A stretch of DNA of 63,788 bases, the filler included, from Hausera hauseri (taxonomy: Eukaryota): NCBI GenBank assembly GCA_046269625.1. It is 11 parts of 11 records of this genome, joined end to end, with 100 filler letters (N's around TTAATTAATTAA, not from the genome) between each part and the next. Parts side by side here need not be neighbours in the genome. Positions count along the whole stretch, not along the records: positions 54,475 to 59,324 come from JBJURY010414589.1; 10 more parts are not named here. One strand, 5' to 3'. Shown here one piece after another: positions 10,585 to 59,424 of the stretch. Both the position numbers and the translations under genes were made by a program. The first letter of the stretch is position 1. The number at the start of each line of letters is the position of its first letter. The notes under the pieces are model-generated. The model ran no database searches. It worked only from the letters and a program-made list of their open reading frames with translations, and was not told the origin of the DNA.

Positions 10585-10599
10585 TTTGTCAGCGATTAA

Positions 10600-16305: not shown

Positions 16306-17159
16306 CAGTATTTCTCTCATGACCTTCAACTGCAAAGGACATTAAATTTATTTAAGTATCATCAAATTTTAACACCTTAGGACTATCAATTTTTAAACAT
16401 CGGAATCATCTGAATTAATATTCTGATATAAAGTTTGAGCTCTTAATCCTACTTGAACAGACATATCAGGTTTGCTGTTTAACACATTTTTATCTTCATG
16501 TTCACCTTTTTGGCCAGCCTTGGCAGGTTCTGCAAGTTTAACAAAATTTTCCGATTTAAGAAGCACTTTAATCCTAGTGCTGGAAATAGTGCTTTCATAA
16601 TTTAAAGTACCAGCTTTTGAATGTTCTGAGTGTTCTGTATGCTCTGACACCAATATTATCTTTTTTATATTCTTCAAGAAAAGAAATAAATCTTCCATAT
16701 ACTCCAAAAAAGAATGAGGCAAATAATTCTATATATAATTCCAAAATAAGTAAACGAGAAGGATAATCTCTAATAAAACAACAATTACCAACGTTTATTT
16801 TTTAAATTTTTAAATTTTCAATTATTATCGATATATTTACATTTATATATACATACATATATAGTCTGAGTATGAGTCTTTCTCGAACTGTTCGTCTACA
16901 AAGATCTGCAAGAGACTGATTCTGAAATGTACTGTCGACGAATACCTATCATCTGATGAGCTGACGATATATTTGCTGCCATTGGGTAAATATTTGACAC
17001 AGTAGAAACAATATTTATTCGTTGTGAAATTGATTTTGATTTCTTCAACAGGATCATGAGTTTTGTCCAACAATACACAGTTGTCTGCTTTTGTTACTCC
17101 ATGAACAACACGCGGGGCGAAAATAATTGCCAATATTAGTAACTGTACATGTTTTTTTA

Positions 17160-18795
17160 CATGAATTTTACAATCGACACTAGTAGTGGCAAGACGCAAT
17201 GATTCATTAAGCGAACTATGATAGCGATATTAAAGGCATCCATTTGATCGTAAACCATTTGCTTCAGAATTGCAACGTTATTTGCAATATACGAGCCATT
17301 ATGTTTTATAAATTTGAAATAAGAAATCCAGGCAAACAAATAAACGATTACAACTTGACATTTCGTAAAATCCTGACTAGTTGCAGCTGGACTGCGGTGG
17401 CACTCGAGCACGCAGCACCACACTACCCCCTGTTATGGAATGACACTATCGGTTGGCAAGCAAAAAGACAAAGTAGTTAGGTGTAGACGAACTATTGAAA
17501 GAAGCATTTTTTGATGTGATTGAAACAGAAACGTGGAAAGAATACGTTTTGTGGACTATTGCATCTTTGTATGGACAAGGCGTTGAATTTTGTCGACATT
17601 CTGTTCACTGCTGTATTTGCTAAAAGTGACTGTTTTGTGTTTTTTACTGTCATGTTTGATTGTTTGTTGAGATGGTTGGAAGAAAGTTAAATTTTGATTT
17701 GACGTGTCAGCAGCTTGAGAACTAGTTGGTATGTCGTTTTGCGTTGTCTTTTATATTGATGAAGGTTTTGGAGTATCAGGTTGTCGTGCAGGTAGAATGT
17801 GAGAAGAATTGAAAGAATCAAGGAAGTTTTGTGTGGATTCAGCTTAAGATTTCGGTGTATCATCGACGAAGAATGCAGGTTTTACGTTATTTATGTGTAC
17901 GTTTTGCTCTTTATCGTTTCTGAGTATGGTGACCGTGTGTGAACTTAGGTTGAGAACTTTAAATGGTCCTAAATAGTTTGGTTGGAATCCTGCAGGTGAA
18001 GGGTTTTTTATCCAAACAAATTTTGCGTTGAATAGTGAATCAGGTAAATATATTTTATCGCCATGTAATATTTTGCAGAAAGAATCCTGGCTTAACTGAA
18101 CGAAGGGATTTTGTGCAAATATAATTGTTTTGTCAGTTTGTGTGTTGTCCAAGTCGGTGAGCTCAAAAAGTGCCCGAATTGTGGTACCAAAAAGTGCTTC
18201 AGCAGGTGCGCAACCGGTGGTGGTAGACGGCGTGTTGCGCCAACCGAGTAAGAGAAAAGGGAGGATAGTTGTCCAATTCTTATGAAATTTGGCCAGGATT
18301 CTTAGCGAAATCTTGAAAGGGCGATAAAAGCGTTCTAATAAGCCGTTCGACTGGGGATGGTATGAAGTTGTGTGTATGTGATTTATGCCCAGTCGATTAA
18401 CTAGAGATTTGAATAGGTTCGATTTAAATTGGGTACCTTGGTCTGTAATTATATGGCGAGGTGAATCGAACTGGCTAATCCAAATCCTTATGAATGCATC
18501 GGCAATCGAGTCTGTGTTGATGAAGTACAAAGGGACGGCTTCAGGTCAACGAGACGCGCAGTCCATCATTGTTAAAATTAATTGGTGGCCGTTATCGGAA
18601 GGTAATGGGCCAACGATATCTATATGAACTGACTCAAAACAAGATGTACATGGAAAATGAAATAATGGTGGTTTAAGCTATTTAGCGACTTTGAATTTTT
18701 GGCAAGCTACGCATTGCCTAACCCAACTCTGTACATCAGACCTCATTGATGGCCATGTTACGTGACGTTTGAGAAGGCGGAATGTAGCCTTGGAA
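17160..18795 (-). mobile_element. Gypsy family A integrase, PPT (17423-17431) and 3' LTR starting at 17422 (distal LTR end undefined)
   Basis: VHIDIVGPLP, ITDQGTQF, HPQSNGLLERF and YLGPFKV motifs. GGGGGTAG precedes TGTGGTGC. Closely similar to 60990-62350. Confidence 0.92.
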
Positions 18796-27260: not shown

Positions 27261-28227
27261 TTTGTAGAATCAATGGTTATGATTAAGTATAATTCAAATA
27301 ATGTGAACTTTAGGAAATTTAAACAAATTGAATTTAAAAGAAATTTTAATTTGTTAAATATGGCAGATATATAGTATTCCACACAATATAACCATGAACA
27401 ACTGAGCAAATATTACATTGATCAGCAAACAAATTTTGTTATCAGATACATTTGAAACGTAGTTTCACCCAGTATTGCGTTTATCTGACTAATGAAAGCA
27501 CAGATGCAGTATTTCTATTTTCGGTGATCAGAGAAAACAACTGTTTTTGCATATATAGTTCAGTGTGTTTTGAGGCTCTATCAATGTTTTTGTTAGTGGT
27601 CCGAACTAAATTATATTCATCTGATATTTTGTAGTTTTACATCATTATTAATGTATAATAATCAACTAAACGAATTATTTTTTGCTGATGAGTGATTATC
27701 CTGTATATTATCGGTAACTTGGATAAAATTTGCTGTAGAATTAATTTGAAATACGTTAAGTTTGAACATAATCTTTGCTATACCTTTTAAGGAAGAAATT
27801 AAATTCCAATAAATTGTTAAACTTAAAAAGTGAAAATAGATTGTTTACAAAAATTATTGAAATTAACTAATAATCACAATTCGGTGGATCAACCTTGATC
27901 ATCAGTTTTCTGTACTTCACAATTTTCACTATATTTTTCCAGTATAATTGCAAAAGAAACAAATTACGAAGAGAATCAAAGATTTGGCGATTACAATAGA
28001 AGAGAAATTGGTTTTGATATAGCCATAGAAATTTTAAGGACACATCTCCAAACATACACCAAATTGGAGGTTGGAATGACGTTAAATTTTAATAAACCTC
28101 AAACGACTGAAAATAAACTTTTAGAATTGGGAAATAGGACGAATGGTGCTGGCAAACATAAGTTTTCTGAACTATTTACTAGAGTACAGAGGTTATTTAG
28201 TGATGCATTGTCTAGATCATAGAGTAA

Positions 28228-29760
28228 TGATTTAACTTGGTTAATTATACTTCTCGTAATTTTGTGCCGAGGAGCTTTTGATTGTGATTATTCCACTGTC
28301 GGAGCATTGTATTCTCTCGTATACCTAGAAAAACATCCGTATGCGGAACAGGATAAGTTTGTTTTTGAAGAAACTAAAAAGTATAGATTATACCAAGAGA
28401 ATCTGTTTATTAGAGTTAAGGCACTTCAATGTAAACTGACTAAACAAATTAAAAAATAGTACTGTGGAAAAGTACATCGACATTCAACACATTTTAATGG
28501 CTATACCTAACGAACCAAAAGAACTAACAACGGATCAGTGTCCAGAAGCTGTGAAGATGGGGAAATTAAAAATAAATAATACAGTCGAAATAGGAGCAGC
28601 CGTAAACGCTATTATATATCACACTATCAACGAAGAAGGTTACACTGAAAGTAATGGAAATTGTTCAGAAAATACAGTTGATGGTGTACAAGCGCCGTAT
28701 ACACTAACTATTATTGAAAAATATATTTCATTTGTTGTAATAAAATATTTAATTATTACAACTGACTGTAAATATGGTACAGAATACTGTAGAACCACTG
28801 ATTCTATTATCGCCTGGACTGCACCTACAGTGGAATGTAATTTGGCATTTCTAAAGAAAATCAGTTTTAATGTAGCTAAAGAAATACGACTTAGTACACC
28901 ATTTGCACGGCGAATTGCCGGAAACGAAGACGAAGAAAAATAGAATCAAATAGAAACACCAACAATTATGATTTCGTCGGAAGTTGAAGATTCAATAAGA
29001 TTCATTCAAAAAGAAAAAGTAAAAAAATGTGGAGTAGAAAACGTTTATGCCACTAATATGGAGAATATATATTACATAAACGGAAATAAGTAATGCTTTA
29101 AAAGCGGTTTATCCTACAGAAGTTAGACCAATGAATTATTACAATGGAAAAATGGATTATTTATTTCATTATATGGTAAACAACCAATAACAAATCTATA
29201 AAAATATGATCCAAAACAATTGCCTACTGGCTGAAGATTTACTAGCATTAAAAGTGGCCGTAGATGATATAAATCCAGTTATAGATACCCTGATACTTCC
29301 AACTAAAGTAAAAGGTATGTTTAGACGGGTATCAGGAGAAGCTATTATAACATTCAGATGTACAGAGGTAGTAGTAGATTTAGTGGATATGAAAGTACGT
29401 AACAACGAAAAAACAGTACAGTATAAAGGTGAAACAAGATACGTGGCCCCGATTACTAGAGTTATGCTGCAAAAATGTGAAGAATCTAGTAAAGTGAGAA
29501 ATTGTTATGAGGAAATTGCTCCCTTATACAAAATAAATAAGGACGACTGGGTAGCTTTACCCGCACGAAATAAAGCTGTAACACCAAAAAAGCTCAATAT
29601 GTTTTCCTTAAAAAGGGACTTGGTTTTTGACACTTATAAAATGTTTTACATTGAGGCATATACGATGTTCAAACTGTGGAGAAATTGAGGCATTATTTGT
29701 TATTTCCTAAACAAATTCAAAGATTAATAATTTTTTATACTCAGAAGGTTACCGATACGT
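28228..29760 (+). pseudogene. Class III fusion glycoprotein (chuvirus-G / herpes gB-like retroelement env) relic
   Basis: Signal-like WLIILLVILCRG then AFDC. Further motifs: ALQCKL, NGNC, CKYGTEYC..IIAW..EC, CGVENVYATN, NNCLL..NP..GMFRRVSGEAIITFRC, YKGETRYVAPITR and C...IAPLYKIN..W. Contains stops and frameshifts. Confidence 0.8.
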
Positions 29761-29800
29761 GGGACAGAAGAGTTAATTGGGAAATATCTTAAGTCCAAAT

Positions 29801-31667
29801 TGTGAGGAGGAATTGAAACTGATATTAACGTTTAAATGTAAATCAAAGATAATTAAATAAACAGCCAACAGAAAGTTAGACAATTCAGAAAAGAAGGAAA
29901 ATAAGACTCATTCCCCGAGTGAAGGAGATAAATCTTATATAAAACTTTTGTAATAAATCGATTATGGATAATTCTATTTTACAGTGATCAAGTGAAGTTG
30001 ATGTCGGGACGGAAGAGATGCGATCTACTAACATGGCGACCAACGCTTCAAGAGACCTCTTCGAGAAAAAATTGATGTCCAAAGAATTACAGAAAGGTGA
30101 AACGTGGAAACCTTTATTGGAAAATGCGAGAGATACTTCGACTTCATAAAGATGCCGGAAACGGACCGAGAAACCGCGATTCTGTGCCTTTTGGCGGAAA
30201 AAGCACAGAAAAAATACAGTATAGTGAGCCAGAAAGTGAGAGTGTACCAAAAATGGTTGGGAAAAGCCTTTTCAAAACCCACAACGCTGTGTGGAGATGT
30301 GCATGAGGCCTTGAACTACAGAATGAGGGGGACAGAGCCGGCCGCCTACTTCAACAAAATCGAACAACTGGTGATGGACATCCTTAGCCACAAAATAACA
30401 GCGGAAGCTCTAACAGAGGAACCGATGATCCACTGTTGCGACAATCCAGAGATGAGGAAGGAAATCTCCCACAGTAATGAAAAAAAAGTAGAACAAATCA
30501 AAGAGAAGATACGGAAAGACCACGAAGTGGCAACAAAGACGGAAGAGATAAACACAGTCACAGAATACACTAAAGAGGGTCGACGGAGTTACCGGGATGT
30601 GGTGGTGCACAAATTTGACAAACCAATACAGGAAAGAAGGGGTTTCAAGCTGCACAATACGCTGGCAAAGAGTATGATGAAATGCTGGTCGTGCCAGAAA
30701 GACGGGCATACATGCAAGACATGCAACTTCCAACATGCATCAAGATGTTTTGGCTGCGGAAAAGAAGGACACATTAACGGGAATTACCAGGAAAGGAAAC
30801 CCATAATATGCTATGGGTGGGGTCATCAAGGACACATAAGACGAAACTGCATAAACATAAAATACAATACATGTCACAATAGAGGGCACAGGGAAGAAGC
30901 ATGTTACACAAAATTGGACAAGAGCAGAAGAGGACAAAATACGTATGCCGACAATTTCAAAAGGGCGAAGTATGGTCAAAAAAGATATGGAGAGAGGTTG
31001 AACAGCAGGCACACATACGTTGCAAATATTTATGTAGATTATAAAGAATCCATCATCGATTTGACAAACCCAAAAGGCGGAGCCTCGACAGAAGTGGAGC
31101 CAGTCGGGGCATTATATCAAACAACTCCAAAGACTCCAGAAATATTCAAAGGAATGGACAAGGTATTGAAGAAATGAAGGAAGGAACACAAGAAAAGGTA
31201 CGGAGGTTCATAAAAAGGAAACGTTTGGGGACAGAAACGAAGAAGTACGATTTGCAGAAAGTGAAAATGACAGCCTTCATGAAGCGAGGGTTTTTCCTCT
31301 GGAAGGATTAACGGAAAAGAGTATCACGTACGATAAACTACAAGGACGGCCAAGTATAAAAATAAAGATGCAAGATAGATGGGCAGACTGCCTATTGGAC
31401 ACGGGGCACGGGTAAACGTGATGAGTAGGAAGATTTTTGGAAGATTGACACATGTCCGGCTGGAGAAATCAGATATCATACTCCGTTGTGCAAATGGTAG
31501 CTCCCTAGACTGCATGGATGACCTGTCCGTAAATGTGGACCTCAAGGGAGTACAGAAGCGCGTAACTTTCATAGTAGTGACAGACATATTACCAGAAATA
31601 ATAGGAGGAATGGAACTACAAAAGACTTTTGGAATCGAATTAGGTTGGAGACAGAAAGACGAAGAGA
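29801..31667 (+). mobile_element. Gypsy family B, copy 2: 5' LTR (29801-30033), PBS TGGCGACCAACGC, gag with four CCHC-type knuckles, protease
   Basis: ORF 30104-31177 carries CWSCQKDGHTCKTC, CFGCGKEGH, CYGWGHQGHIRRNC and YNTCHNRGHREEAC. DCLLDTGARVNVMS spans a frameshift at ~31385-31420. Confidence 0.9.
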
Positions 31668-34300: not shown

Positions 34301-35194
34301 TAAATTTGCGTTGAGATGTATGATAGTACCGTGATGGCTAAGTTAGAAGTCAGAGGAACCAAGGATAGAAAAACTGCGAATCTAAAGGTTGGGGATGTGC
34401 GGGTGTGTTGTATGGAGGGTATATGTGAAGGTTGTTATAAAAAAGAGAATAAAGATGGGAGCAGTGATGGGAGTGGAGGCGTGATTTGTGGCCGACATCG
34501 AAGGTGCCCTCGACCGACAGGCGTAGAGTTGGCAGTCGGGTGCCCGAGTCTCCCCTCAAACGGCGCAATATATTCGGTAAATATGTCAGCTTGTTTAATT
34601 GGTGTTATACGTTTTGTAGTGACAATATTCGATCGTGAAACGATTGAAATGAGCGCATAGGGTCAATGGGTGTCATCTCAGACAAATTGGAGACTCGGAT
34701 CTGCCAACAGCTGTATATTTAGATATATACAAAGAAATTTCGGGCATTATTTAGGCAAATAACTTATAAATATCGCCAATGATAGAAACCTTATGCGGTA
34801 TTACATTGATAATAATTTCGTCTCCCGATCCGCATAGAGAGATTTGAAACGGTTTGTTGTTGAAAGTAATAAGACGAAATCCGATTGGTGGTATCTGAAT
34901 TACTATTTCATCGAGTTTTAAGTGAGAATTTTTGTAATGAAATTTAACGGTACGGACTTTATCATTCATAGACATACAAAGTTGAATAAGATTCAAATAA
35001 CATTTATACTTTTCCCCGTCAAGAGTAATTTTGTTGTCTATTACGTCAGAGTAGAAAAACTTAAACAGACGTGGATTGGTGCCGATACAATGGAAAAATG
35101 GATAATCTGGAATTTCAATTTTCCGTAATTTCTGGAAATCATTTTAACCTCCCTGCACAACCCACAAACCATGTTAATGCCAAGTTTGATTAAT

Positions 35195-35800
35195 CTAGAT
35201 GACCAATGAATTCTTCGGGACTTATAACCAACGGAATAGACGTAATTGCGATTATGGTAATTACCCGAATGAATCTGTTGTTGCAGCAACTGGCCAATAA
35301 ACAACTGAATAAGTGATTCAATTCGTAAATTGAAACTACGATCATCATTTATAACTAAGGCGACTTGTTGGGACTCATTTCGTGAAATGTACACGCGCCT
35401 ATCAACGGTAAGCGAATTCGACGGCAAACCTAGATCTTTATAGGAATGTGCCGGACAATACATAGTTCTATCAGTATAATAAACGCAATTTTGCTGCAGG
35501 GGACAAGGCACATTGAATTTCGACGTACATCAAGAATAAAAACATCTAATATCCGCACCGGATTTGCCATACGACAAACAAATGGTTTTTGCGGCGGACA
35601 CAAATGATTCGGGAGCGTTATTGAATGTACCGCACTGCATTTCAAAAACACTGTTACACCACAATGCACAATTAACATGGAGCCATTTGTTCGTGTCAAA
35701 ACACAACAAACGATCAGCACCGTTTTCCGACAAATAATGGCTTCGTTTACAGAGCGAACAAATTCGATTATCGGCGAGATCGTTCCGCCTTAAGACACAT
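35195..35800 (-). pseudogene. KMT2C/KMT2D (trithorax-related) fragment: extended PHD and start of FYRN; upstream Ser/Lys-rich sequence to ~37140 may belong to it
   Basis: DNRICSLC...GADRLL..DTNKWLHVNCALW..VFE, then MYCPAH...VDRRVYISRNE..QVA and LRIESLI...IGQLLQQQ...VGYKSRRIHWS. Has an in-frame stop and lost Cys/His residues. Confidence 0.85.
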
Positions 35801-37349
35801 TTAGAATTGAAAGAGGGCTTTTTAAATTGATTATCGGAAATAACCAACGAGTGACAAGATGACTGGTCGGTAAGAATTTTGGGGTGGAACGTTAAGTACT
35901 TTTTCATTTTGTAATTTTTTTGCGTTACCGACGCAGTTGCTGTCGCAGTCGCTGATGACGACTTTAATTGCTGCAAATTCAATTTCTATTTTACGAATAA
36001 CTTATCACAAATGACGAAATTACCGGATTTCTTGGACAACTGTTTCGATTTCGACAAGGATCCTTATAAAATCGCCGACATTTCCGATGGTTGTTCCTTA
36101 TCAATGTTTGATTAGTGATCTCTGCTAGTCGGTAGCAGAGCAAATACTATATCCAGAGGTATTGAGGATTGTTCCAACATTTTTGTCGCCGACAATTTAT
36201 CGCGGATATCATTAAAATTAATTATATTCTCCGTTCCTTTTATTAAAACATCTTTATCCTGCACATTTTTGATGTAAATTCTTCGGTGATAACAGAAGAG
36301 TCATCAGACAGATTAACTGTTTCCGGAAACTCTATTTTACTTTGTTCGCAATCCAGAATATTAAAGCTTAAATCACATTTTTCAAGAATTAAAAACGGCT
36401 TTTTGTTTGAGTCAATAATAGAGTTTATTTCATTATCTTCATAGTTGTCTTCGTCTATTTCAGGACGTATAAGCGCCGAACAAATTGGACTATTTTTGGC
36501 TGTAGATATTGAGGATGATTCATTTCTGTTTACAGGCGAATACTTTTATCAGTAGACAAATCCAAATGAAATTTACTGATTTCGAATGACTCTTCCATAA
36601 TTTCCAATGCTGGCTTATTTCTTTTCCATTGCTTACGTTTGGCAGAAACAACAGCCGTTACTTCAATAGAATCTTCATTATCTAGTGAATGTGAATTTTC
36701 TGATGATTCTTTGGTTGAATCTACACTCACAGAAAGTTCGTCCTTGGAACACTCAGTTTTAGACGATCTAATTCTAGTACATCTCTTTTGTGTTAGAATA
36801 ACCGAATCTGAGAAGAATCTTTTACCTTTCGCTTTTTAATGGCGATATTTTGCTGCATATTACTCTTCAATTTATCAAATTGTCACTTGAAGATTCTACG
36901 TTGTTGAATTTATTGCTTTCTGGATGTTCGATTTTTCTGTCTGAATCATTAATCTTTTCAGCATTTAAAATCGTAGATGAAACAGGTTGATAAACATTTG
37001 AATTTTTTCTCTTTTAGCTGATTTATCAGAAATCGATTTAGATAAACTTTTCTTCATTATTCGCTTATCCGTCAAAAGTTTTGGAGATTCCTGAAATTCC
37101 TTCACTGGTTGACGTTCTGAAGAAACCGTCATTTGACATAGATTTTTATCAATTGTGCTAATGAGTTATCTCCATCGGGGACAATCCACATCCAATAAAA
37201 TCCATTTGTCATATATTTTTGCATATTTTTCGGCTTCTGCTTTGAGTTTTTCCAAGTCAAACTGGATATTAATCCGATCTAAATCGTCCAAATCCACTCG
37301 CTTCGACAATTGCTGAATGGTGTATGTTACGTCATGAGGATTTATTCCA

Positions 37350-37984
37350 GTTTCAAAAGTCATATTTCCTACCTGGATGCTAACAACTTGTATGGATGGG
37401 CAATGAGCGCCCCATTGCCATATTATAACTTCAAGTGGGTTGAGCATCCTGAAGACATCCCTATCCTGGACCTGGATCCCACTGGAGATACGGGCTATAT
37501 ATTGGAGGTGGATATGGAATATCCGGCTTCCATCCACACAAGGCACCAACAGCTTTCTTTCCTCCCTGAAACCAAACCACCGCCCCATGGAACGCAGCGA
37601 AAGCTGCTCTGTCATTTGGGTAATAGGGAGAGGTATGTAGTCCACTATATCAATATCCAGCAGGCAGTTAAACATGGACGTCGCATTACTAAGGTCCAAA
37701 GAGCCCTACAGTTCAGACAGTCCATGTGGCTGCAGTCCTACTTTGATCTGAACACCAAGCTGCGGACAAATACCAAAAATGATTTCGAGAAAGATCAATT
37801 TAAGCTGTAGAATAACAGCGTTTTTGCAAGACGATGGAGAATACCTGCAACAGACTCAACATCGAGCTAGTATGTAACTGGAAGCGGGCAAAGAAGCTTA
37901 TTGCCAGGCCTAACTTCTACAGCAGCACCATATATGCTGAGAACTTGGTAGGCATCCATATGCTGAAAACAGCATTAGTATTCA
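37350..37984 (+). mobile_element. Polinton/Maverick-type protein-primed family B DNA polymerase fragment
   Basis: YLDANNLYGWAMS.PLP, GYILEVDMEYP, YVVHY.N.QQA, FEKDQFKL*NNSVF / KTMEN and KKLIARPNF. Contains a stop and a frameshift. Confidence 0.92.
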
Positions 37985-39801
37985 NNNNNNNNNNNNNNNN
38001 NNNNNNNNNNNNNNNNNNNNNNNNNNNNTTAATTAATTAANNNNNNNNNNNNNNNNNNNNNNNNNNNNNNNNNNNNNNNNNNNNTACACAGAAATTATTT
38101 TCTGTTTACAAACTATGTCATATTATCAAAATATTTTCAAAAGCTTTTAGGTTTGCTGCTTGCCGGAATCAGAACCAAGTGTCGTAGGCCCACAGAGGAA
38201 AAGTATACCTAACTTGAATATATATTAAAGAATTGTTGAATGATAAAGATTTTTTGTTATACTAATTGTTTTTAGTAAAACAGTACCTGAGGAAGCAAAA
38301 TGTTAGAGAAATTCATCTAAAATATAAAAATGTAACGTTTTGATTGTAATAATCTAGTATGCTGTGTAAAATCATGTTGAAATATTATTTGGAATTTTTC
38401 GCTGAAAGTTAAAATTGTACCAATTAAAATTTGAGACATGATGGACAAATTGAGCATATCAGAATATAAATTTTAATTACATTCACATTATTTATTATTT
38501 ATTAATACATAGTCTGACAAATAAATTCGGAGACTGTATAATAAATTAATACATTATGTAATTGAAATTAAAATTTGTTCATTGACTTGTATTTTACGCA
38601 CTTAGTTTAATTTTCCCATTTCACCAGTGTTTTAATTTCCTGTAAACGCATAACATTAAAATTACCTTATCTCTGTAAATCTTCTTTCTGGTGTATGAAA
38701 AGAACATTGCTAACGATATACTGAACACAGCGAACCCAAGAAAAATTAATACGCAATGGATCTTCGTAATATTTTGATCGCTTCCATATGATGTTAAATT
38801 TTTATATATCTGAGGGACACATGAGTTCATTTTGTTTCTTAATTAGAGTCGAATATCGATTATTTATATTCATGCTAAACTTGGATGAATTTTACTCTGA
38901 AAAATATTTCATGCAATGATCCAATAAAAACAATATTGAGATTTTATTAGCCATAGTTGCAGGCGAAAAGAAAAACAATTTCATTTCGTCACACAGTCAA
39001 ACAAATTCAGTAATTGTGATTTTTGTAGTTCATATAAAACTGAACTCTCAAAGAAAACTCCAAATTTCAACAAAACAAATTTACTGAACGTTTGCTACAA
39101 CTTTGATACAGTGAAATCAGTATTTGATTCTTGACGGATAAATAGAGTTTTTGCAGCATAATACAACTGTAATGAATAAATTTTGATTTCATTTACATTA
39201 TTATTTAGTCTGAAAATTATGTAAATGAAATTAAAATTTGTTCACATGCTTCGTTTTTATGAAGCTATGCCCAATTTGTACGTAGATTGTTTGAAACATT
39301 GAATTAATTGAAGCGTGGTTTTTAAACATGATGAAAATTTCAGAGAATGACCTTTAAATTTGATAAGTAATATTTTTTGTTTACATATTAAATTGTCGGG
39401 CAGAGCCATCATCGGGTCCTTGTGGAAAAGTCAAATTTTATTCATTTGTCTAAAAAGCTTGGTGGCTTAATTATTTTGCAAAACTCAAACAAAATGCATG
39501 TTATGTATATACACTAGACAAATATTGGCTAAGTTTCTCATAAATTAAGTGCAACGCCATTTAAAAAGAATTTAGGCNNNNNNNNNNNNNNNNNNNNNNN
39601 NNNNNNNNNNNNNNNNNNNNNNNNNNNNNNNNNNNNNNNNNNNNNNNNNNNNNNNNNNNNNNNNNNNNNNNNNNNNNNNNNNNNNNNNNNNNNNNNNNNN
39701 NNNNNNNNNNNNNNNNNNNNNNNNNNNNNNNNNNNNNNNNNNNNNNNNNNNNNNNNNNNNNNNNNNNNNNNNNNNNNNNNNNNNNNNNNNNNNNNNNNNN
39801 N

Positions 39802-44048: not shown

Positions 44049-45126
44049 AGATGTCATGATGACGACTCAATTAATCCATGGTATTTGGTCACGAGATTTG
44101 GTTAAACAATTAATTTTGGCTAGATCTGAAAACTTTGAAGGAATTCTACAGTTAGCTCAAGATTTAGAAATGACACTCGACAGATATGTCAGACACAACG
44201 ATAGAAACGACAAAAATAATGATCGAAGTGATCGTAACGACAGAAATCGAAATGACAATTGTGGAAGAAAAGATAGGCGATTTACGGGTAACAAAAATTA
44301 TGGGAACCGAAATAATAGCAGTTACAGAAATGGCCGAAGTAATAATTATACTAATACGAACAGATCAGATTTTAACTGGGATAGGACTAGAGGAAATTAT
44401 AAAGGCTCGAACTACTCGAATCAAAACGGCGATAACCGAAATAATGATAATCGACGGAATGCAGACAACGCGCAAAGTTTGTCAAATCAGTATAATAAAA
44501 GTATGAATAGATCTAAGTCACCTGTGAACGAAGACGGTCGACAAAGAGTCGGCAGAAATGGGAATTTAGTCTGTTTTACTTGCGGCAATGAAAGACATAT
44601 ATCAAGATCATGTTCAAACCCACGTAGCGTTTCATTTACCGCGCCAAATAAGATCAGTATGATTAGGATTAATGAAAATTTAGAAACAAAGTATGGTGTT
44701 CGCGGTGATACAGGCACTATAATTAATATACAAGATTTGCGGAAGTTTCTAGATACTCAGACTGAATCCAATAATCCACAAATTTTGATGGCCAGAAAAC
44801 AATACAGAAATAAACTAAGATTACTAGATGTATATCATGGTTTAGCAGAACCGAAAACTGATTACGAACATGCGATAGCACCTAAGCGAATTGACATGAC
44901 ACGAAAAAAGAGTGTTCCGACAAGTAATAAACCATCTGATAAACCAGGCACAACGACAGAAGTCGACTTAGATGCAGCGCCTGAGTTTACGGTTGAAAAA
45001 GTAACTAAGTCTACTGATGACGATACAGCAGAAAAAGAGTTTAAGGAGCCATTAATACTTAAAATTATGAAAAATAGAGGCCGTAGCCCTTCCTTAAAAA
45101 CGAAACGTAGAAGTCGTTCACGCTGA
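44049..45126 (+). mobile_element. Retroelement gag C-terminus (Asn/Arg-rich, CCHC knuckle) with a possible vestigial protease motif
   Basis: QLIHGI...LVKQL...FEGILQLAQDLE (end of capsid), CFTCGNERHISRSC at 44572-44613, and RGDTGTIINI with DTG at 44707-44715. Confidence 0.8.
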
Positions 45127-48100
45127 CAAGTAACTAGAGAGAAAATAGAAGAAACGAAAAATAGGTACACCATTGTAGACAGTGACGTAGAACATAGCAT
45201 AAATACACCACAAATTGATCCATTCACACCTATCGAGGTAAAAGAATCTACAGTGTCAATTAAGGAAATTAACGAAATTTGCCCACTTCCCACTAGTTAG
45301 GAAGAAACGTTAAATGTTGATGATTTTGATCCAAGGAAGTGGAAAGTCCGACGTTAGTGAAAAAACGCCGATGAGTTGAAGAAAATGAGAATTAGATGCT
45401 AGGACCCAGAAATATTACAACGTAACTTGGAAAGGCTTAAGCAAATTAACAAACAAATAGATATATCCGGAAAAAAGCAACAGTTTCCTGAGAGGTTATC
45501 TAAAAGGTTAAAATTATGCAGTGAAGAAAGGCTCAATGAAGCAATCGACTTAGGACAACCTGAGGAGGTATCACCTGAAACGTTATTAAAATGGAAGCAT
45601 GAATTAGACTTATGGATTAAAAGTGGAGTCGAATTTTCGGAAGGATGGAGCAAAAACAATGATAGTGTTGATGTGAAAGTCACTAAGGCTCAGACGCTAC
45701 TGTCTACCTTAGAAACAAACCCAAAACTAAAGAGAGTAGTCCGTAATTTAGAGCGTATGATGGATAAAATTCTCTGGGCAATGATTAATCGGCTTAGAGA
45801 AAAACCGGCTAGCAATCGAAGTAATATCAATTTAAAAATATTGGGTATAGATCCAGTAGATATTCCTCTCTTAATGGAGATGATAAAAATCGCTTTCGCT
45901 GTACCTAAACAATACACGAACCTAGCGAATCGAATCAAAATGGAAAATGAAAAGAGAACACAAATTTATAGTTTGAGAAACCGAATTATGTCTCCAAATA
46001 ACGAAGAAACCAAATACGTAGTAAAAGCTTGTATCATAGAATTTGGTGAATATAAGGATGAATTTAGTTGTCAGCCGGATTATAAATTTTATAAAAGGTC
46101 TAGATGATAAATTGAAGGATGCATATAAGATGCTAGACAAAGCTATATTGGCAAAGCCAATAATCGCTAATCAAGTGTCGGAATGGTCCGGATTAATAAT
46201 GAGGCTAAGAAAATTAGTAGAAGACCGTAAGAAAGAATTTCCAGAAAGCGAACCATCTATAAACAGGCAACTAGAAGAAAATGCACGTGATTTAGATACA
46301 ATACAAGCAGAAATAGACATCCGTACGCAATTCGAAGCTTTACGACGACTAAATTTTATGAAGAAGAAGCAAGAAACGACAATAGTGGAACAGATTTATA
46401 AAATGATCGAAGAAACCAACTTTACAACAAAGCAGAATATGACTTGCGCTTACTGTCCAAGATTAAGAAACATCCAACTAGAAGGAGTCCAACATTTAAC
46501 AGATAAACCTATCGACGAGATTTCAATCCAGGATATCAAAACCCTAGACATTTGTCAAAAACATAGAGCAGCTTTAGCGCCAGCAATAAAATTCTTGCTT
46601 AAACCACAAGAATGGATGGCCGGAACAGATCAAAACTGCCATACCGAGTTAACAAAAATAAGAAACAACCAACATCTTAGTTTCGAGGAATCTAAGTTCG
46701 TAAAGAAATTGCTGGATGCAATGAATGCCGACTCAAAAGTCATAAATGAGATGTATGAGTTAGCCTTCCTATTAGTAGAAATGGCAGAGATTAATGATGA
46801 GAAGATGAGACAACTGATGCCTAAAATAAAACAGATTGAAGAAACGTGCATCAAAACCACACAAAGAGCAACTAGGTTAGACGAATTAGTAAAAGAGCTC
46901 GGAATCTACCGGAACAAGTATGCTTTTACCGAATCAGAAATCAAAAAAGAGCGAGAATTTGTACAAAGATGGCAAATAGATGTAATTATTGAACTAACTG
47001 ATTATCACCAAAGGGGATTCATCAATTCTAATGAATTAGGCGAATTACTGAAAATGATTCAATATGCCTGTGGAAACGGAATAGGTTTCCGAATAACGCA
47101 GATGAAAGAAATGCAACCAAGATTGAAAAAAATTCGAGAAAATGTGCAAAGAACGAATACAGCCTTAGTAGACTATGGACTTCCAGATGTTGGAAATGAA
47201 CAGGAATGGGATGCGTATTTAGATGCCATAACGGCCGAAAATCCCGTCACTCCAGTACAACTAAATGCAATAGAAACGTGTCCGCAGAACAGGAGATTCA
47301 ATGTGGAGATGCTCCTGGATTCAGCGCTAACTGAAAGAGATTTATTTGAACTAATTGACGTAAATATTACTGAAAGTAAGTGAAGACAACTTATTCCGAT
47401 CTTAACTAAATTATCGAGTAAAAATACAATTTATAGCACAATGCCGAAACTTTTGATAAGGAAATACGCTAAAATCTTGAGGGCTAAACTTGAGGTAACG
47501 ATGAAAGTAATGGTATCATCCGAGTGGATGGACGAAAAAGAATGTGAGTTAACTACATATTCCTATGCAATGGACGTAAGAGAATGGTTATTAAATAATG
47601 GCGGAACAAATGAGCTAAATTATAGATTTTACTTTAGAGGTAGAATACTCGACAATTTAGAACAATTAATAGATATAGGGATTATCCCCGACGAAACAAA
47701 TCGAATAGTAGTAATAATAGCCAATGAACAGACAAAAGAAGAAGCCACGCGTAAGGCCAAGACAGAACAATGCGTAGGACAAATCATGGGAGTCCGAGAT
47801 GCTGCAATGTATTTCTACTATTTACAAACGGATGATGGCAAGGAACAATAGGAAAAGAATTTAGTGCCGCTGAGTGAAATGATAGCCAATGTCCCAAGAC
47901 AGAAACGCCCAGTCGGTAGGCCTAAGAAGACACGAGAAGTAGTTTATTACAATGGAGAATTGATTAGAGAGTTGAGACAAATGTCGATTCCTACTTTCTG
48001 CACAGAGTATGAAGAATTAAACAAATTAATGAAGAAATTAATACGTATTGTGAATTATTCAAGTCTTCGAGATGACACATTAGATGATAAAGAAAAAGCA

Positions 48101-48442
48101 ATATTCAATGTAGCTAGAATTATGAAAAGTTCCCGTTTTACACTATCAAAAAGTAACTTAACTGACGAATCGGTAATTGAAAAGATCATGATAGAAAACA
48201 CCACTGAAAAATTAAGGAAAGTATTACTATACTCAGCTATCAAAGTAAACTCTAATCCAGAGAATGAAATTAATAGAGCTACAAGCTCAGCACGAAGAGC
48301 GGCGAGAAAGCTACCCTGCGAAGTAAATTGGTCGAGACTATTTGATAAAGAAGAAGACAAACGACCCAGAAATACCAATAGGCTTAAAGATGTGCTACGT
48401 AATTTGGTAACAACTGATAATAATAACCGGAAAAACGAATAA
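45127..48442 (+). pseudogene. ~1100-aa unknown region continuing the gag frame: helical/coiled-coil region, ubiquitin-like domain (~47486-47720), AT-hook (47903-47929)
   Basis: ORFs 44056 and 45427 share one frame. ORFs 46043, 47441, 47864 and 48632 share a second frame, implying one frameshift near 46050. YRFYFRGRILDNLEQLIDIGI resembles the ubiquitin motif [29 protein letters not shown] is an AT-hook. Confidence 0.6.
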
Positions 48443-49646
48443 AATTGGCTAATCAGCTTACTTACCTTGATGATGCTAATAAAGCACATAGGTGCTGTTA
48501 CCATCTACGACTGCAATAAGTTTAAACGACGGCAGAAATATTCCCTAATGGATTTGGAAGTGTGCGAAGATGCCAGGCCGCACAAGTTATAAACGAGAGA
48601 GAAAAACTATTTTCTGTACCAACAACAAGAATTGATAGCATTAGATGGATTGGAATGTATGATGAGACGATCTCGAAGCATTTTTCACTGTGGATTAATA
48701 CATGGATATTCTTCAATAATCAAACCAACAACTCCTCCAATTCCGATGAACTTAGAACGCCAGCACTGCAAACAGGCTAAGGAGATCGGAAGAGTACAGT
48801 GGGACTGTATGGAATTAGAAATGCAACCAGGAAAGATAATTAGCATATAAGATAGTGGTCTGAACGTTAGACATGCATAATGGACATTGTAACGGAGCGG
48901 AATACGACACGGGAAAAGGATTACAAACAAAAGTAGTGGTCGTGGATTTCTATGAATCAGAGATGCGAGCACAAAAAGTAATGTTCCATAGTGTCACTAA
49001 ACTATATATCGAGGATCAAAAATGACATTTACAAGACGGAACCTGTGCTTTCAGAAGTTCTGTTATAATATGGGAACCTCCCTCTGGAAGAAGCTGCAAT
49101 TTTATCAAAATTAAGGAATTAAAGTTTAATGAAACTACCGGAAAGCGATATGTGGGTAAATCTGGCAACAACTCAAGGACACGCGAAGACATATCAGAAC
49201 ATCCTACACCACTATATTAATATCTGATCAGCATGGACTAAAATTTATTATGAAAGAAATGATTTCTCGATGTTAAGTAGTGATGTTCGCTACTAACTAT
49301 GGAGAGTTTTTTGTCGCAGAAACAAAAATAAATGCAAGGACTTACAAACTAGAAACGCAGGTTATCCGAATTGAGGATTGTCTGAAAAACAGAGACGATT
49401 ATTTCTGTTACAAGGGACAAGTCGGAATAACCGAGTTATATCACAAAATGATAACACATGATTGTAAATTAGATATGGAGATCATAAGAACAAAACTGGC
49501 TCTTATTTACGCTAATCCCGAGTTAGCATTCACAATAATTCCTATGAGAGAAGGAATTTTTGGTCGAGTTATCTGTGAAGTACTATTAATTTACCAATGT
49601 GAGAAAAGAGATGTATCCATCAACGTTGAAGAAAAACGCTGCATGC
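48443..49646 (+). pseudogene. Class III fusion glycoprotein (chuvirus-G / gB-like env) relic, in frame with the upstream polyprotein and cut by the contig end
   Basis: NWLISLLTLMMLIKHIGA signal-like stretch then VTIYDCN..YSLMDLEVC. Further motifs: LECMMRRSRSIFHCG, HCKQAKEIG, NGHC, and HDCKL..NPEL..EGIFGRVICEVLLIYQCEKRDV..C. Aligns with 28228-29760. Confidence 0.8.
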
Positions 49647-52900: not shown

Positions 52901-54476
52901 TTTAGGCGATGAATACCATCGAATACTGTGTCATTTCGAATGTATCAATCATCCATCCTTCTTCGGATATTCGTCCTATTCATTTTCGGTGACCATATAA
53001 TTACATATTTGCCAACTACGGTTCACGCAGCCACCGATTTCTCTGGTTTCTTTCTTCCACCATAAACAGTTCCACCATAAACAGTTCTTTTTACCAGTCT
53101 TTCAGAACACTCTTTGTCGAATCATCAATATAATCCTTAAATTCTTTTAGCATATAAAATTCTTACTGACCCCTTTGAATAATTAAATTTCATAAATTTA
53201 TTATAAAACAACAAATTACAATAAAATACTGGCAAAAATCAATAACATATATATACTTATTTAAATCTTTACCATTGATGTCTTCATGATTTGCAGAACT
53301 GTTATCTTTGTTTATTTCTTAGTTGTTGTTTAGGTTACTGTGAATAATGTATCATTGTATATATATAAATGAAAAATGTACCAGTATAATCTGGCTTTAA
53401 TTTCTAAAGACCACTTGAGAATTAACCAAATTTTTATATCAGTAAGTCGTGTTTTGAACGTCGTATAGCCAGTTTATATACTAGCTCGTGTGACAAGTAA
53501 TGGAATTTCTAAAAATCTCCGAGCTGTTTTGTGTATTCTCCAAATGGATTTTTATTATTTTAAAATTCTGCAACTGCCTGTAACCTGTGTATTTTCTAAA
53601 TGGATTTGTTATTTTTAGATTCCACCGTTGTTTGTTCTATTGGACTCATCATTCTTAGTCACTAAGTGCAATATTTCCAATGGACTAAATTAAACATTTA
53701 CTTTTCAATGGATTCTCAGTGTATTGTGCACTTTGTATAATGCATGTGTACTTATTGATTCACCAAATGCATATGCGTTGCGTTTGTTCATCTACCAAAT
53801 GTAGTACTCCAATTCCTTTCCATTATTCGTCAATCGTCATATTGTTATTAGTGGGAATACTTTTATTGATTTTTAAATTGCCTATTTGTAACGTGTTATT
53901 AAATTTCACAAGTTTGTTCTCGATTCTTATAATTGATTATTATGATATTATGTTAACATGTGTGACAATTATTAAATTGAATTCTTGCCCGTTTTTGCAT
54001 CACATTTTCATTATCGATTTTCAAAACACTACAGAACGACATGTGTTGTCTTATTTCAATTTTTTTAACAGGTTATCAAATCACCTTTACTGTACAGATT
54101 GGCATGTGTTGAATTGCAAATTATTTGTATTATTGTTTGCTTATTGACAAATTATAATTTCTGTTAATGACAAATTACAATTTCTGTCAAAACTCTGTAT
54201 TACCGTATTATAATTTCACTTAATATTCTGTATTGCCATGTTCAATATTCATAGCAGCTTTAGTTAATTTATTATCTGGTTAACAATCGTTGTACAAAGA
54301 ACAGCCATTTTAAAGGACACCCATCAAAAGGGGTTCAACAAAAGAAATAAAGGAAAATAAAAAAATGATTTATTNNNNNNNNNNNNNNNNNNNNNNNNNN
54401 NNNNNNNNNNNNNNNNNNTTAATTAATTAANNNNNNNNNNNNNNNNNNNNNNNNNNNNNNNNNNNNNNNNNNNNAC

Positions 54477-54975
54477 CTAATCATCAATATTGGAATTATA
54501 GGAAATCCGATATTATTGATTTTTGCACACTTGCACATGTATTTTGCACTGCACAGTATATATCAAGGTTCATCTTGATGTGCTCTATCTACCTGCACTT
54601 GACCCCAATCGATTCCATCAATCCTACGCTGAACGGTGAAAAATATGTAAAAAGTGAAAAAGTGCCTTAGCAACCGTATCGAAGAGCACACTTGATTCGA
54701 GTATTTTCGTGATCTGTAGCACATCAAGTACTCTACCCGCCAGTATTTGTGTAATATTGATATTATTGATTTTTATTTTATAGCGAAAAAGCCTATTGGA
54801 AGTCTGTCCCAATTGGTAATTATTCGAAAACCACTCAATATGCTTAAATTCTAATTGCACATTCACACAGTGCATCATATGTGCTTTCGATTTCACTCGG
54901 TGCCGGGTGCTAATCATCAATATTGGAATTATTGGAAATCCGATATAATTGATTTTTCCACACTTGCACGTGTGA
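54477..54975. repeat. Imperfect direct repeat (~65-nt core at 54477 and 54909, ~432-nt spacing) within a non-coding repeat rich in GTGCAC/ATCGAT-like words
   Basis: ctaatcatcaatattggaattat.ggaaatccgatat.attgattttt.cacacttgcac.tgt occurs twice. Confidence 0.75.
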
Positions 54976-55245
54976 AACACACATGAGCAGTATACTAAAC
55001 AATGGGCACTTATGTGCACTATCGAGTTGCACTTTGTCCCGATCGATTCGATTAACTGTGCAATGTGCAGCTATCGATTTGTGAAATTTACAAAAATGTG
55101 CATAGCAAAGGTGCTTAGGGGCACCGTTGCTAGCACATTACCGATCGATAGTGCTCAGTGTGTACTATCTATTGGCACATGTGCAGAATTAATTTATCAA
55201 TTCGTACACCCCCCGTGGGTGGGACAGAATACCATTTTTCCACCA

Positions 55246-57290
55246 CTATCCTTTTTCATGTTTGTTCATTGCGTGTGATCCGTACGCAATCACTCTCTCG
55301 CGCCCCAGTCTATTCTTCTGTGATAATATCGATCTAATTGTGTCGAAGCATGCGTCCGTATCGCGGATAATTTCTCTGTTGAAGTCAGTGAAACCTAGTA
55401 TTGGTGGTGTGGCTAAGGCTCTTTTCATTAACTCAAAAGCCTTGTTACATTGCTCGTTCCGTATTAGTTTCTTGTCATTTAATCCACATAGTTGCTCAAA
55501 TGTCTTGGATTTTGCTGCGTAACCTTGGATAAATCTTCTGTAGTATTTGCAGATTCCTAAGAAGCTTCTCAAATTCTTGAAACATTTTGTTTTCTCAAAG
55601 GACTTAATTGCTTCCAGTTTTGATGGATTTTCTGTATTCCCTTGTCATTCACTATGTGTCCTAAAATTTTATTTCTTTGTTGAGGATGTGACATTTCTCT
55701 GGGTTTATTCTGAGACCTGCTTGCGTGATCCACTGCAATACCTTTTCTAGTATCCTATAATGCTCTTCTAGAGTCTTAGAGAAGATTAGTATATCATCTA
55801 GGTATACCACTGTTTGTTCAATATCCCCTAGTACTTTATTCATTAGTTCTTGGAAGGTGCCCGGAGCTGCTTCTATGCCGAATGGCATCCTGTTAAAACA
55901 GAACTGTCCTAATTTGGTTGAAAACGCCGTCTTCAATTTGGAGTATTCCTCTAACTCGACTTGTAATATGCATTCCCTAGGTCGATTGACGTGAAAAATT
56001 TGGTCCCGTGTAACCTGTCCAATATCTCTACCACGTTAGGCATGGGGAAGGCTTGTCATTCTGTTATAAGATTCAGCCGTCTAAAGTCCAGACATATTCT
56101 GACGTCGTTCTTGTCTCTCTTCTATACGCATATCATTGGTGTATTCCATGCTGAGTTACATGGCTTGATAATGTCGTTTTCCCATAGGTTTCAGATGGTC
56201 TCGTCAATCTTTTTTTCTAGGTTTACTGGTTGCCTGTGAAGTTTGATATACTTCTGGGTATTTCTGTATAAAGTTGAGTAGCTGTAGTCATTCACCTCAA
56301 GAGCTTCCTTGGCCCTGCTGACTCGTTCTTGGTTACTCACCTTAGGGCCGAACTTGGCTTTCAGATTGCATATATCTTGCTGTAATGTTTCCGTTTTCAT
56401 GCGTTTCCATCCAAGTTCTATTCCGAATGCCTTTTTTAGGTCCACACCACTTATTATTTCTGGGCGTAATTCCGACTCTACCAAAAATGTCAGGCGTTTC
56501 CTTAGACCCTTGATTTCTACGTTTGTTGTCAGTGTGCCCAGGCAATCTAAGGGGCTATTGTTCGCACATTGTAGTGTGGTATTTGATTGCTTTGTGTGTG
56601 TTTGCAATTTTATCCACGATCTTTTTGCTTATGACGTTTACCCTGGCCCCTGTGTCTAATAAGCAATCTTCCCATCTGTCTTGTATCTTTAATTTGATTC
56701 CTGGTCGTCCATTAAACTTCCTGTATGATATATATTCGACATGCAATTCGTCTAGCGTGAAGATCTGTGTATCGTTCCCACTCTTCTCCATTCCGTTGGA
56801 GGATACTTCCTGGAAATTTTCCGTTTTTATAAATTTCCGTACTTTTTCCTGTGTCCTTTTATCCATCACTATATCTCCGTGTCCCCTTGTTGATCCATCT
56901 ATACTGTTTGATATAATACTACTATTATACATAACAATATTTTGTAGACTGAATCTATTGTAGTGCCCCGATTTCCTCCACTTCTATCGGGGCTCTGCCT
57001 TTTGGGGCATTTGACTCCTGTTCCGATTTGGTTTCTTCTTCCTCTACGTTTGCGATTTCCCCGTCTTCTTTTCAGATTATCCCCGTACCTTCTTTTCACT
57101 TTGTATGTATCCTACCTGGTTGTCTTTTCTGCACCTGCCTATCCTCTATGGTGGCATCTCACACAGCTAAGGTTGGTACAATTTCGTCTGATGTGTCCTA
57201 GCTGACCACATCCGTAAAATCTTATTGGTTTCCTTTCGGGACACTGCCTGCCTATGTGTCCTTGTTTTCAGCATCCAAAGCATTTTATTA
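55246..57290 (-). mobile_element. Gypsy family B-related copy: gag end, protease, RT, start of RNase H
   Basis: RWEDCLLDTGARVNV, KTAFST...RMPFG..APGTFQ..VYLDD, RSFLG...YYRRFI, and DTDAC...ERVIAYGS. Confidence 0.93.
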
Positions 57291-57932
57291 GTCTCTGTTT
57301 GGTAGAACTGACTTAAAGTGAATCCAAAATAACGATAAGTAATGTGACAAAACAATAAATCCAACAAGTAGCTTCGGATAAGCTTCATTTTTAAGTTTCA
57401 AGATTCAAAAAAATTGTCAATTCAATTAATCAATTTTTTACATCATATTTACAAAGAAAAATCACAATATCGCAACATGATGTCACAAATGTCATTCTCC
57501 TGTCAATATCAGCTGGGTACACTTCGCGAAGTTGTCACGAGTCAGAAGGTTTACCATGATTTCTTCGTAAGGTCAAGAGAATTTGTTAACAACCTTTTGC
57601 TGACAATTTTGTAGACTGCTGTTATAATTGTGCTAAAGATTGAATTAGTTTCTTTATAGTAATGTATGTACACAATTTTTTTAAATATTTTATGAGTAGC
57701 ACTTCATGGCCAATGCACTTTAATCAGCAGAGAGGTGATATGTAGTGTATTGACAATTGAGATGAACTGCGTATTTACTTTGAACAGTTCTTAAAATCGG
57801 GCACACAGCTATCGTTATATACAATATGAAATGATCATTTGTATGTGATTCATCTGCCCGTTTTGCACAGAGTTGGGTGTTGACAGGACACGAGGTGCGC
57901 CCGCAACCACGGCACCACAGCCCATAATCATA

Positions 57933-59008
57933 ATGTCCTCAAAGTTAGGAGGAGTAAAATTCATACATCAAGAAGCTACATTTAAATGTGGAAAAGCAAT
58001 CCATTCCACTAACTATCCTTCCTACTATGTTGCAGATTCTGAGATACCTGATGTTGACAACTTACCAGTCGATATTAAAAGTTTTCTGAATTTAAGAGAT
58101 CATTTCCATATCCGAGATGACTATGGACGTTTTCAAATTGATTAAGAATTTGATTCAAGTAGAATGGTCACCCAATGATAACATTACCGACCCCGGAGAT
58201 ATGTTTTATAGTCGGGATAAGTATCTAGAAAATTTTGGATGGATATATCCGTCTCAAATGCAGGAAAACGAAAGGAAATGAAACGACTCCATCGAAGAAA
58301 TGGAAGAATTAAACACACCGTATATTGCAGAAGTCAAAGATTCAACTCATGAATCAGATACCGATATTTTCGAAGACATCATAGATAATCAAGATGTATT
58401 GCAGATTTTGGCCTCAGATGATGAAGAAATGAATCAACATGACCAATGGTATGGTAGCCTACCAAAACCAGATAATCAACAACAAACTGAAATTTCAGTC
58501 ACGGATCAGCTGGCCCTAAGGATAACGAATTCCTTACTTGGAAGCGAAAAAATTACTTTTAATTTCAGAATAATTATAAAAACGGGATACCTAAACTTAC
58601 CGATTCCTATTCATGATGTAGAACGACCTTATTATATATCAAAACCTATAGACTCAACTGAAGTTAGCAAGTGGACCTCAGAGATCAACGAATTAATCGG
58701 ATTAATTTTCCAGACTGTAGAAAACATATTTTATCATTCCCTATCGGGTCACAACTGCTATCTTAAGACTGCCGATAAATTTCAGGATAAGATTCAACTC
58801 AAAACTGCAGATAAAGATATTGAAAAATGAAACCACGGACGATATTAAAAGTTTTTACCATGGTGCTAAGTTGAAAAGCGTGCTAATGATAAAGAGAAAT
58901 CAACCGACGTTGATACCCGTGGAACGCGTTCCACCAGGTAAGAAACCAGACCGAGATGATTTTTTAGCCACCAGAATATCCGATGAAATCGTGGACTTAG
59001 ATGGTTGA
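57933..59008 (+). pseudogene. Unknown ORF (~350 aa when rejoined), homologous to the C-terminal part of the retroelement accessory ORF at 8302-9360
   Basis: EWSPNDNITDPGDMFYSRDKYLENFGWIYPSQ aligns with EWTPTDSQGNILDYGDLMNRKPEYIGTMKWQFDVQ. A second shared block is KIxxN..I..P..I...WxSxxNE. Both ORFs end VDLD[GA]*. Confidence 0.6.
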
Positions 59009-59424
59009 TTCTGCCCAATCCAGAACAGATTTATTTTGATTCGTGGGACTCAGTCGCCGATCCCAGTTGTCAGTTGATTTTTGACATTGATTCAGACTTG
59101 CTTTGACATTGATTAAACGGCATCTTGCGTGTGTTGTATCCTTCATTTTATGCTGTATATTCTTTCTTGACAATTGACAATTAGATGTTCACTGTGTAAA
59201 TGTATTTTCTTATATCTATGTCGTATTTTTGCTTTATTTTCACCAGTCACCTTGTATTTGTAAATATAATATCTATCATCTTATTACTTAACCCTTTTGT
59301 TTACTTGCACCACTTTTAAGGGTANNNNNNNNNNNNNNNNNNNNNNNNNNNNNNNNNNNNNNNNNNNNTTAATTAATTAANNNNNNNNNNNNNNNNNNNN
59401 NNNNNNNNNNNNNNNNNNNNNNNN

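Follow-up and report, generated by a model that had tools for sequence, protein, structure and literature searches.

A broken accessory ORF behind an envelope fragment in Hausera hauseri and its likely relative in a Ty3/gypsy element

Genes and features of the locus

The window, by which we mean the whole analyzed stretch of 63,788 nucleotides from Hausera hauseri (assembly GCA_046269625.1), consists of 11 small contigs of 4-8 kb each with N-TTAATTAATTAA-N spacers between them, and the locus of interest lies on the contig at 54475-59324. The host is an animal with short introns, and pieces of GART, VPS13, RPA1, a proteasome subunit, and a KMT2-like gene are found in the window, several of them broken: RPA1 with in-frame stops abuts a VPS13 segment at 14491-17229 on the minus strand, and at 34751-35985, also on the minus strand, a KMT2-like PHD/FYRN gene is frameshifted; these are either pseudogene copies or errors of assembly. 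The window is rich in decayed Ty3/gypsy elements and also holds a DDE transposase and a type-B polymerase. One public sequencing run (X1) has 0.23 of sampled words in common, and its contigs were placed at 80% likeness; the X1 depths given below are sums over the contigs of this one run, not copy numbers.

The stretch 57933-59008, which the initial annotation had read as one ORF, comprises three frames with an in-frame stop at 58279-58281, and its first part matches envelope genes. This reading frame opens at 57855, contains an ATG at 57933, and ends with a stop at 58143-58145; within it, 57858-58145 (plus strand) is best read as a fragment, ~70-95 codons long, of the central part of a gB-type envelope glycoprotein gene of chuvirus/Monjiviricetes-like kind, recognized by its similarity to two PF24664-positive genes on other contigs. 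One of these is part of a glycoprotein gene behind a gag-like ORF (49193-49645, plus strand; PF24664 E=1.9e-7 and 3.8e-16), and the other lies at 28860-29685 (plus strand; E=8.8e-13 and 2.4e-15). Against the genes at 49.2 kb and 28.9 kb the fragment scores 76 and 57, each reached by 0/3000 shuffles; BLASTP against a window glycoprotein gives E=3e-8, and a held-out profile built from the two PF24664 genes has the fragment as its sole other match in the window (E=5e-4, the next at 1.2). The fragment has no direct Pfam match, its strong link to PF24664 being transitive through the two window genes, and the frame 57855-58145 has no match to the accessory family described below. Because glycoprotein similarity is absent both upstream (184/300 shuffles as high) and downstream (67/300), the envelope piece is a mid-gene scrap; of a full ectodomain with signal peptide and transmembrane anchor, for which the PF24664 model has 653 aa, only ~90 codons are present. 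A homology between the 57933 piece and the ORF upstream of the relative at 8302-9363 was considered and rejected, its score of 37 (68/3000) being far below the envelope match.

The two comparator genes stand in settings of their own. The second gB-type glycoprotein gene, at 28200-29900 (plus strand), is directly followed by a gypsy gag at 29926-31478, and the same gag family recurs, 84% identical, at 5756-7296, there behind the DDE transposase, so the adjacency of glycoprotein and gag may be an insertion. On the contig at 44049-49646 (plus strand), a gag-like ORF with a CCHC knuckle (PF00098 E=0.042) is followed by ~3 kb of long ORFs and then by the PF24664 glycoprotein. These long ORFs have no RT or integrase match; one looks ubiquitin-like and one AT-hook-like, by eye only and without Pfam support.

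Directly behind the envelope fragment lies the accessory ORF. Its N-terminal block, acidic linker, and second block occupy 58117-58830 (plus strand), as placed by alignment to the relative at 8302-9363 and covered by at least four X1 contigs, which carry between 1 and 56 differences, and its in-frame ATGs at 58117 and 58123 overlap the end of the envelope frame. A C-terminal piece in another frame, at 58802-59008 (plus strand), ends ...EIVDLDG-stop and is assigned by the match of its end to the 8302 ORF and by an excess of silent differences. The copy is dead, carrying the stop at 58279-58281 and a frame change near 58800-58830; an altered genetic code was dropped as an explanation because the breaks include TGA, TAA, and frame changes. 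Behind it, a T-rich 3' non-coding tail runs from 59009 to 59324 (plus strand) and ends TTTTAAGGGTA at the contig break. The initial annotation had described such a tail ending AAGGG, and it is indeed there, the last letters before the assembly spacer being AAGGGTA; to judge from these letters, the tail may end in the first bases of a polypurine tract, with an unassembled 3' LTR to follow. A hairpin at the 3' end is no stabler than shuffles (z=0.4), and the tail has no Rfam match.

X1 depth changes sharply along these pieces, from 9687 and then 1028 over the envelope fragment to 82-447 over the middle of the accessory ORF, <10 over its end, and 0 beyond 59172, where the lack of cover is no evidence either way. 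Given the ~20- to 100-fold gap between envelope and accessory pieces (9687 vs 82-447), most envelope copies probably lack such an accessory ORF beside them. No X1 contig bridges the envelope/accessory junction among the eight pieces listed, so that the join may be old, recent, or the natural gene order.

The claim that no gag or pol surrounds the ORF fails on the same contig, whose minus strand carries gag knuckles, protease, RT, and RNase H at ~55.2-57.4 kb. This decayed Ty3/gypsy remnant (55160-57390; Pfam RVT_1 E=2.7e-24, RT_RNaseH_2 1.5e-13, RVP 0.005) sits ~540 bp upstream of 57933-59008, on the opposite strand and pointing away from it, and is probably a separate insertion. The gypsy copies at 30.7 kb and 6.6 kb have matching gag knuckles; in the remnant itself the start of gag is missing and no integrase was seen. 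X1 depth is ~1e5 or more over most of gag-pol and drops to 15 at 57391, the start of an apparently non-coding spacer of low depth (57391-57857, X1 depth 15-24) that reaches to the envelope fragment. At the other side of the remnant, 54475-55160 (minus strand) is its non-coding repeated end, with very high depth, repeats D1 and D2 lying 433 nt apart, and 'goes back' joints in X1; the repeat measures ~145 nt and its two copies, at the 3' end of the remnant, fall within 54477-55055.

The accessory ORF and its relative

The other member of the family (P0001) has 353 unbroken codons at 8302-9363 on the minus strand of the contig at 7400-12998, where it is the final ORF of a gypsy element and is preceded by an integrase and several additional ORFs. 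The integrase matches gypsy K02A2.6-like polyproteins (21 matches among 4631 candidates, best E=1.5e-32), and it continues in frame into an extension that includes a hydrophobic stretch; next come an ORF whose product has a membrane-like segment and one that had been called an exonuclease, and then P0001. No envelope gene stands next to the accessory ORF in this element. P0001 begins in a different frame exactly where the upstream ORF stops and so may represent the end of what was a longer ORF, now broken. The integrase end, at 10387-12998 (minus strand), is in frame with ~230 extra residues that include a hydrophobic signal-like stretch, and the ORF after this extension combines its membrane-like segment with a weak reovirus p10 (FAST) match (E=0.16) and a short MLPKWEA-type repeat, without belonging to any family. 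The supposed exonuclease (9362-9991, minus strand) has no nuclease match in Pfam; by eye it is reminiscent of the DEDD nuclease type of fold, without obvious catalytic acids. A splice acceptor of host GART follows ~143 nt after the P0001 stop with no evident LTR between, and a GART exon with a short intron occupies 7606-8172 (minus strand), the element seeming to end LTR-less inside or beside the host gene.

Two blocks had been aligned by eye between the ORFs at 58 kb and 8302, and both are present where they had been placed. In the pairwise alignment with shuffling that had been proposed as a check, 8305-9363 (minus strand) against the single frame 58129-58827 (plus strand; P0002, with the internal stop written as X) gives a local score of 89, above all shuffled controls: 0/2000 plain shuffles and 0/2000 ten-residue-window shuffles are as high, and in a larger run 0/20,000 reach it (maximum 81; Gumbel p ~1e-5). 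BLASTP of the pair gives E=2e-4 with 38/188 residues identical (20%), and tblastn across the window with compositional correction gives E=0.014-0.05. Block 1 is significant alone (0/2000 shuffles), carries most of the signal, and has no acidic bias; block 2 alone is marginal (55/2000 as high), the stretch after it is not significant alone (849/3000), and a weak third block (94/5000) lies in order between block 2 and the C-terminal ends. Those ends read PEEVDLDA in the 8302 ORF and DEIVDLDG in the copy at 58 kb, both directly before the stop, and over the last eight residues their match is equaled by 0/3369 other stop-terminated frame ends (1/3369 over six residues). The linker is acidic in both, as the initial annotation had it (30% and 27% D+E), but that of the 8302 copy is also 20% K+R; removing the linker raises the score to 111, a post hoc trimming that we leave uncounted. 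A three-way alignment into which the C-terminal piece was forced misplaced that piece and was discarded.

Could the likeness be chance together with a common acidic composition? The identity of 20%, the marginal standing of blocks 2 and 3 taken alone, and the choice of the pair by eye among many possible pairs all lean that way, but the shuffles and the Gumbel estimate lean more heavily against it, as does a search of 1050 six-frame chunks of the window in which the best non-self match was to chunks of P0001 (89) and the next unrelated chunk reached 54. The lack of acidic bias in block 1, the collinear order of the blocks, the independent match of the ends, and the T-rich tails after both ORFs further oppose it, and we regard chance as highly improbable. 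The two ORFs are, on this comparison of sequences, very probably real homologues, and the similarity, as the alignments have it, is real but weak.

Several diverged copies of the accessory ORF exist, since the X1 contigs on its frame carry 1, 20, 40, and 56 differences over 210-305 nt. In the C-terminal piece, 8/10 listed differences fall at third codon positions (p=0.003) and 7/10 are silent, against 23% expected and against 1 and 0 in the other two frames; these counts are of 10 differences from 3 contigs of one run, among the 40 of 473 differences listed, and are without a positive control. The excess of silent differences points to purifying selection on the C-terminal accessory frame in related copies, and the family appears to have been under selection because its diverged copies differ mostly at silent positions. 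The proposal of a conserved, unnamed retroelement domain is supported: the homology beats shuffles, the ends match independently, the changes are mostly silent, and no library names the family.

Searches for relatives came back empty. No homologue of P0001 was found in 1294 candidates (lengths 194-618 only), and a profile of both accessory copies against 1.84 billion representatives returned none at E<=1e-3. The accessory ORF had no match in viral contigs (0/87 and 0/38 candidate stretches), metagenome contigs (0/60 and 0/526), or PDB sequences (0); Pfam, NCBIfam, and PHROGs gave nothing better than E=0.079, with no nuclease or esterase domain matched in P0001 or P0002 in these libraries or the PDB. 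The 21 gypsy polyproteins have no region similar to the accessory ORF, and the window holds no third copy. The ESM Atlas offered no usable match to P0001 (a 182-aa ORF had a top score of 0.79, at chance level), and AlphaFold2 on the two accessory sequences gave a pLDDT of 33 twice. A word search of the literature found no description of the family, although words cannot reveal an unnamed sequence. Since the window's Pfam-positive envelope pieces also found 0/439 candidates and no locus, these blanks are weak evidence of novelty and the lineage seems poorly represented. The protein family nevertheless appears unnamed.

Origin of the locus

The reading that we favor, and consider fairly probable, takes the locus for the 3' end, dead and rearranged, of a complex Ty3/gypsy LTR retroelement of errantivirus-like or Burro-like type. 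The order observed is a mid-gene fragment of a gB-type envelope with a broken accessory ORF directly after it; either an internal deletion or template switching between co-packaged RNAs of the elements would have brought the two together, after which the copy would have decayed through one stop and one frame change, and a 3' LTR, if any, would begin at the contig break, not upstream. Against this reading, neither accessory-bearing element shows an LTR or a PPT. The intact protein would have been a soluble intracellular accessory factor of ~290-350 residues with no long hydrophobic stretch by eye, running from a short block with a Trp through an acidic linker and an alpha/beta domain to a conserved acidic end, VDLD[AG]-stop. 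A tentative guess from this architecture and position, and one that we hold as possible but not as expected, is that it acted as an adaptor binding a host or element protein via short motifs and so aided replication or blunted host silencing. Bolder, and to our minds unlikely, is the suggestion that the accessory ORF is a lineage-specific selected module swapped as a 3' cassette between envelope-bearing and envelope-less gypsy elements, much as retroviral accessory genes are; the cassette of envelope fragment and accessory ORF may then have spread as a non-autonomous element with its LTR at the contig break, and the acidic C-terminal motif would mark a host target, e.g., in anti-silencing.

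The initial annotation had instead suggested, as a possibility, that the ORF sits on a mini LTR element traveling alone, with 57741-57869 as its 5' LTR; in such a non-autonomous element the envelope/accessory cassette would be mobilized in trans. Of the proposed LTR, most of which falls in the low-depth spacer, the TGT start and ACA end stand and nothing else marks it as an LTR. A TGG, a putative primer site, follows 4 nt after the ACA, and the motif of TG..CA ends plus TGG occurs 15 times in 57301-58000 against 4.5 +/- 3.5 in base shuffles, a clumped count, since many starts share one end; 397/500 base shuffles contain the pattern at least once. That TGG lies within the open envelope frame, which starts, together with a weaker envelope alignment, at 57855-57858 and runs through the segment end, and the window contains no tRNA gene for comparison with the primer site. 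A repeat search found no second copy of 57741-57869 in the window or in the contig, which ends at 59324; the segment is connected with the 3' tail solely by a 22-nt match (77%) between 57739-57760 and 59156-59177, just one of 56 short families, and the purine run that closes the tail at the contig break is what would be expected before a repeat. Within its own element an LTR is not expected to be the part repeated least, and in X1 depth is 15-24 over 57391-57876 (~22 at the proposed LTR) against 82-9687 over 57877-58686, below the coding pieces that it supposedly flanks. Non-autonomous elements of the TRIM or LARD type, the kind that had been proposed, need two LTRs, a PBS, a PPT, and a TSD, and none of these is shown here (for LARDs, see parts of PMC6431247). 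With no second copy, low depth, and a coding frame through its end, the mini element is very doubtful.

Two further origins compete with a rearranged 3' end of one complex element. The envelope scrap and the accessory ORF might be chance neighbors from two unrelated insertions, brought together by nested insertion and deletion and never part of one RNA; the contig consists of many different fragments with abrupt changes in depth, neighboring contigs hold broken host genes and mixed elements, and the P0001 element has no envelope beside its accessory ORF. Yet the two pieces share a strand and, with no spacer between them, overlap at an in-frame ATG, in an order, envelope then extra ORF, that is known (in the parts of PMC6431247 covered here), and we judge chance adjacency unlikely. 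A viral origin is more doubtful still: here the locus would derive from a negative-strand RNA virus, as an endogenized piece with the glycoprotein gene and a further viral gene after it, and the same kind of viral gene would have been captured by the gypsy element at 7.4-13 kb. Fast-evolving viral proteins are often without detectable relatives, and the envelope class is Monjiviricetes-like. Chuvirus glycoprotein EVEs are moreover described as common beside LTR fragments (PMC10084718, PMC7642597, in the passages covered). Set against this, the accessory ORF has no match in viral contigs, Pfam, or the PDB, a gag precedes the window's closest glycoprotein, and the high envelope depth fits amplification by retrotransposons.

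Relation to known complex retroelements

LTR elements have been described as carrying additional ORFs, either in place of env or downstream of it (parts of PMC6431247 and PMC5408684), and a gB-type chuvirus-like env is reported to be widespread in gypsy elements, with a GAG-ENV-POL order in flatworms, nematodes, and bryozoans (PMC13524379, in part). Functionally uncharacterized accessory ORFs and gB-type env are already known in gypsy elements, and only this protein family appears unnamed. The errantiviruses with HSV/gB-type env in the latter account have the same envelope class as that found here, in a gypsy-rich genome, and their GAG-ENV-POL order is the one suggested on the contig at 44049-49646; in contrast to them, our locus has only the ~90-codon envelope fragment, with no linked pol or LTR on the envelope strand. 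An intact errantivirus has gag, pol, and env on one strand between LTRs, whereas the gag-pol of this contig is on the opposite strand and incomplete. No ORF like that after the envelope fragment is described in the passages of PMC13524379 that were covered or in the nine Platyhelminthes rows of its supplement 1.

The planarian Burro (GYPSM1) is a giant gypsy element with a CCHC gag, long extra domains, a mononegavirus-like env before pol, and accessory ORFs, and is also found as decayed fragments (PMC6431247, in part). Its layout is resembled by the contig at 44049-49646, with a gag knuckle, extra ORFs, and the envelope gene that is the closest match of our fragment. The MATH, BIR, BCL2, ankyrin, ubiquitin-like, and dUTPase domains described for Burro have no Pfam match in the accessory ORFs or in 44049-49646, on contigs that are only 4-8 kb. 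The likeness to Burro is one of layout, and the accessory family may already be present, without a name, in transposon libraries.

In the bdelloid elements Juno and Vesta, ORF3 exemplifies modular accessory ORFs that stand behind pol and are common to different retroelements, the same pattern as here, but those non-env ORFs (DEDDy, GDSL, TM) are of named enzyme families, while our accessory ORF is without a family (PMC5408684, in part). Chuvirus glycoprotein fragments near LTR remnants are likewise described as common, and in Anakin, which combines BEL/Pao with a chuvirus glycoprotein, the glycoprotein was amplified by LTR elements and left as fragments, as here (parts of PMC7642597 and PMC10084718); unlike Anakin, the pol genes tested here match Ty3/gypsy, and Pfam showed no BEL/Pao domain. 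Troyka elements were rejected as a comparison because they have no env and have CG termini (PMC12440569, in part).

Accessory ORFs of invertebrate gypsy elements are mostly uncharacterized, and some are expected to counter host defenses or to aid spread from cell to cell. A family under selection and common to two elements of different build would be one to consider for such a role. Only two window sequences and the short contigs of one run represent the family, the copy at 58 kb being a fossil, and its value is as a lead for annotating the complex retroelements of this genome, not as a new kind of element.

Other repeats and mobile-element pieces lie elsewhere in the window. A piece of type-B DNA polymerase at 37283-37810 (plus strand; PF03175 E=5.7e-7) is possibly from a Polinton-like element, inverted repeats occupy 38468-39244 (38.5-39.2 kb), and long CT-rich simple repeats at 39.8-43.9 kb are the source of many spurious ORFs.
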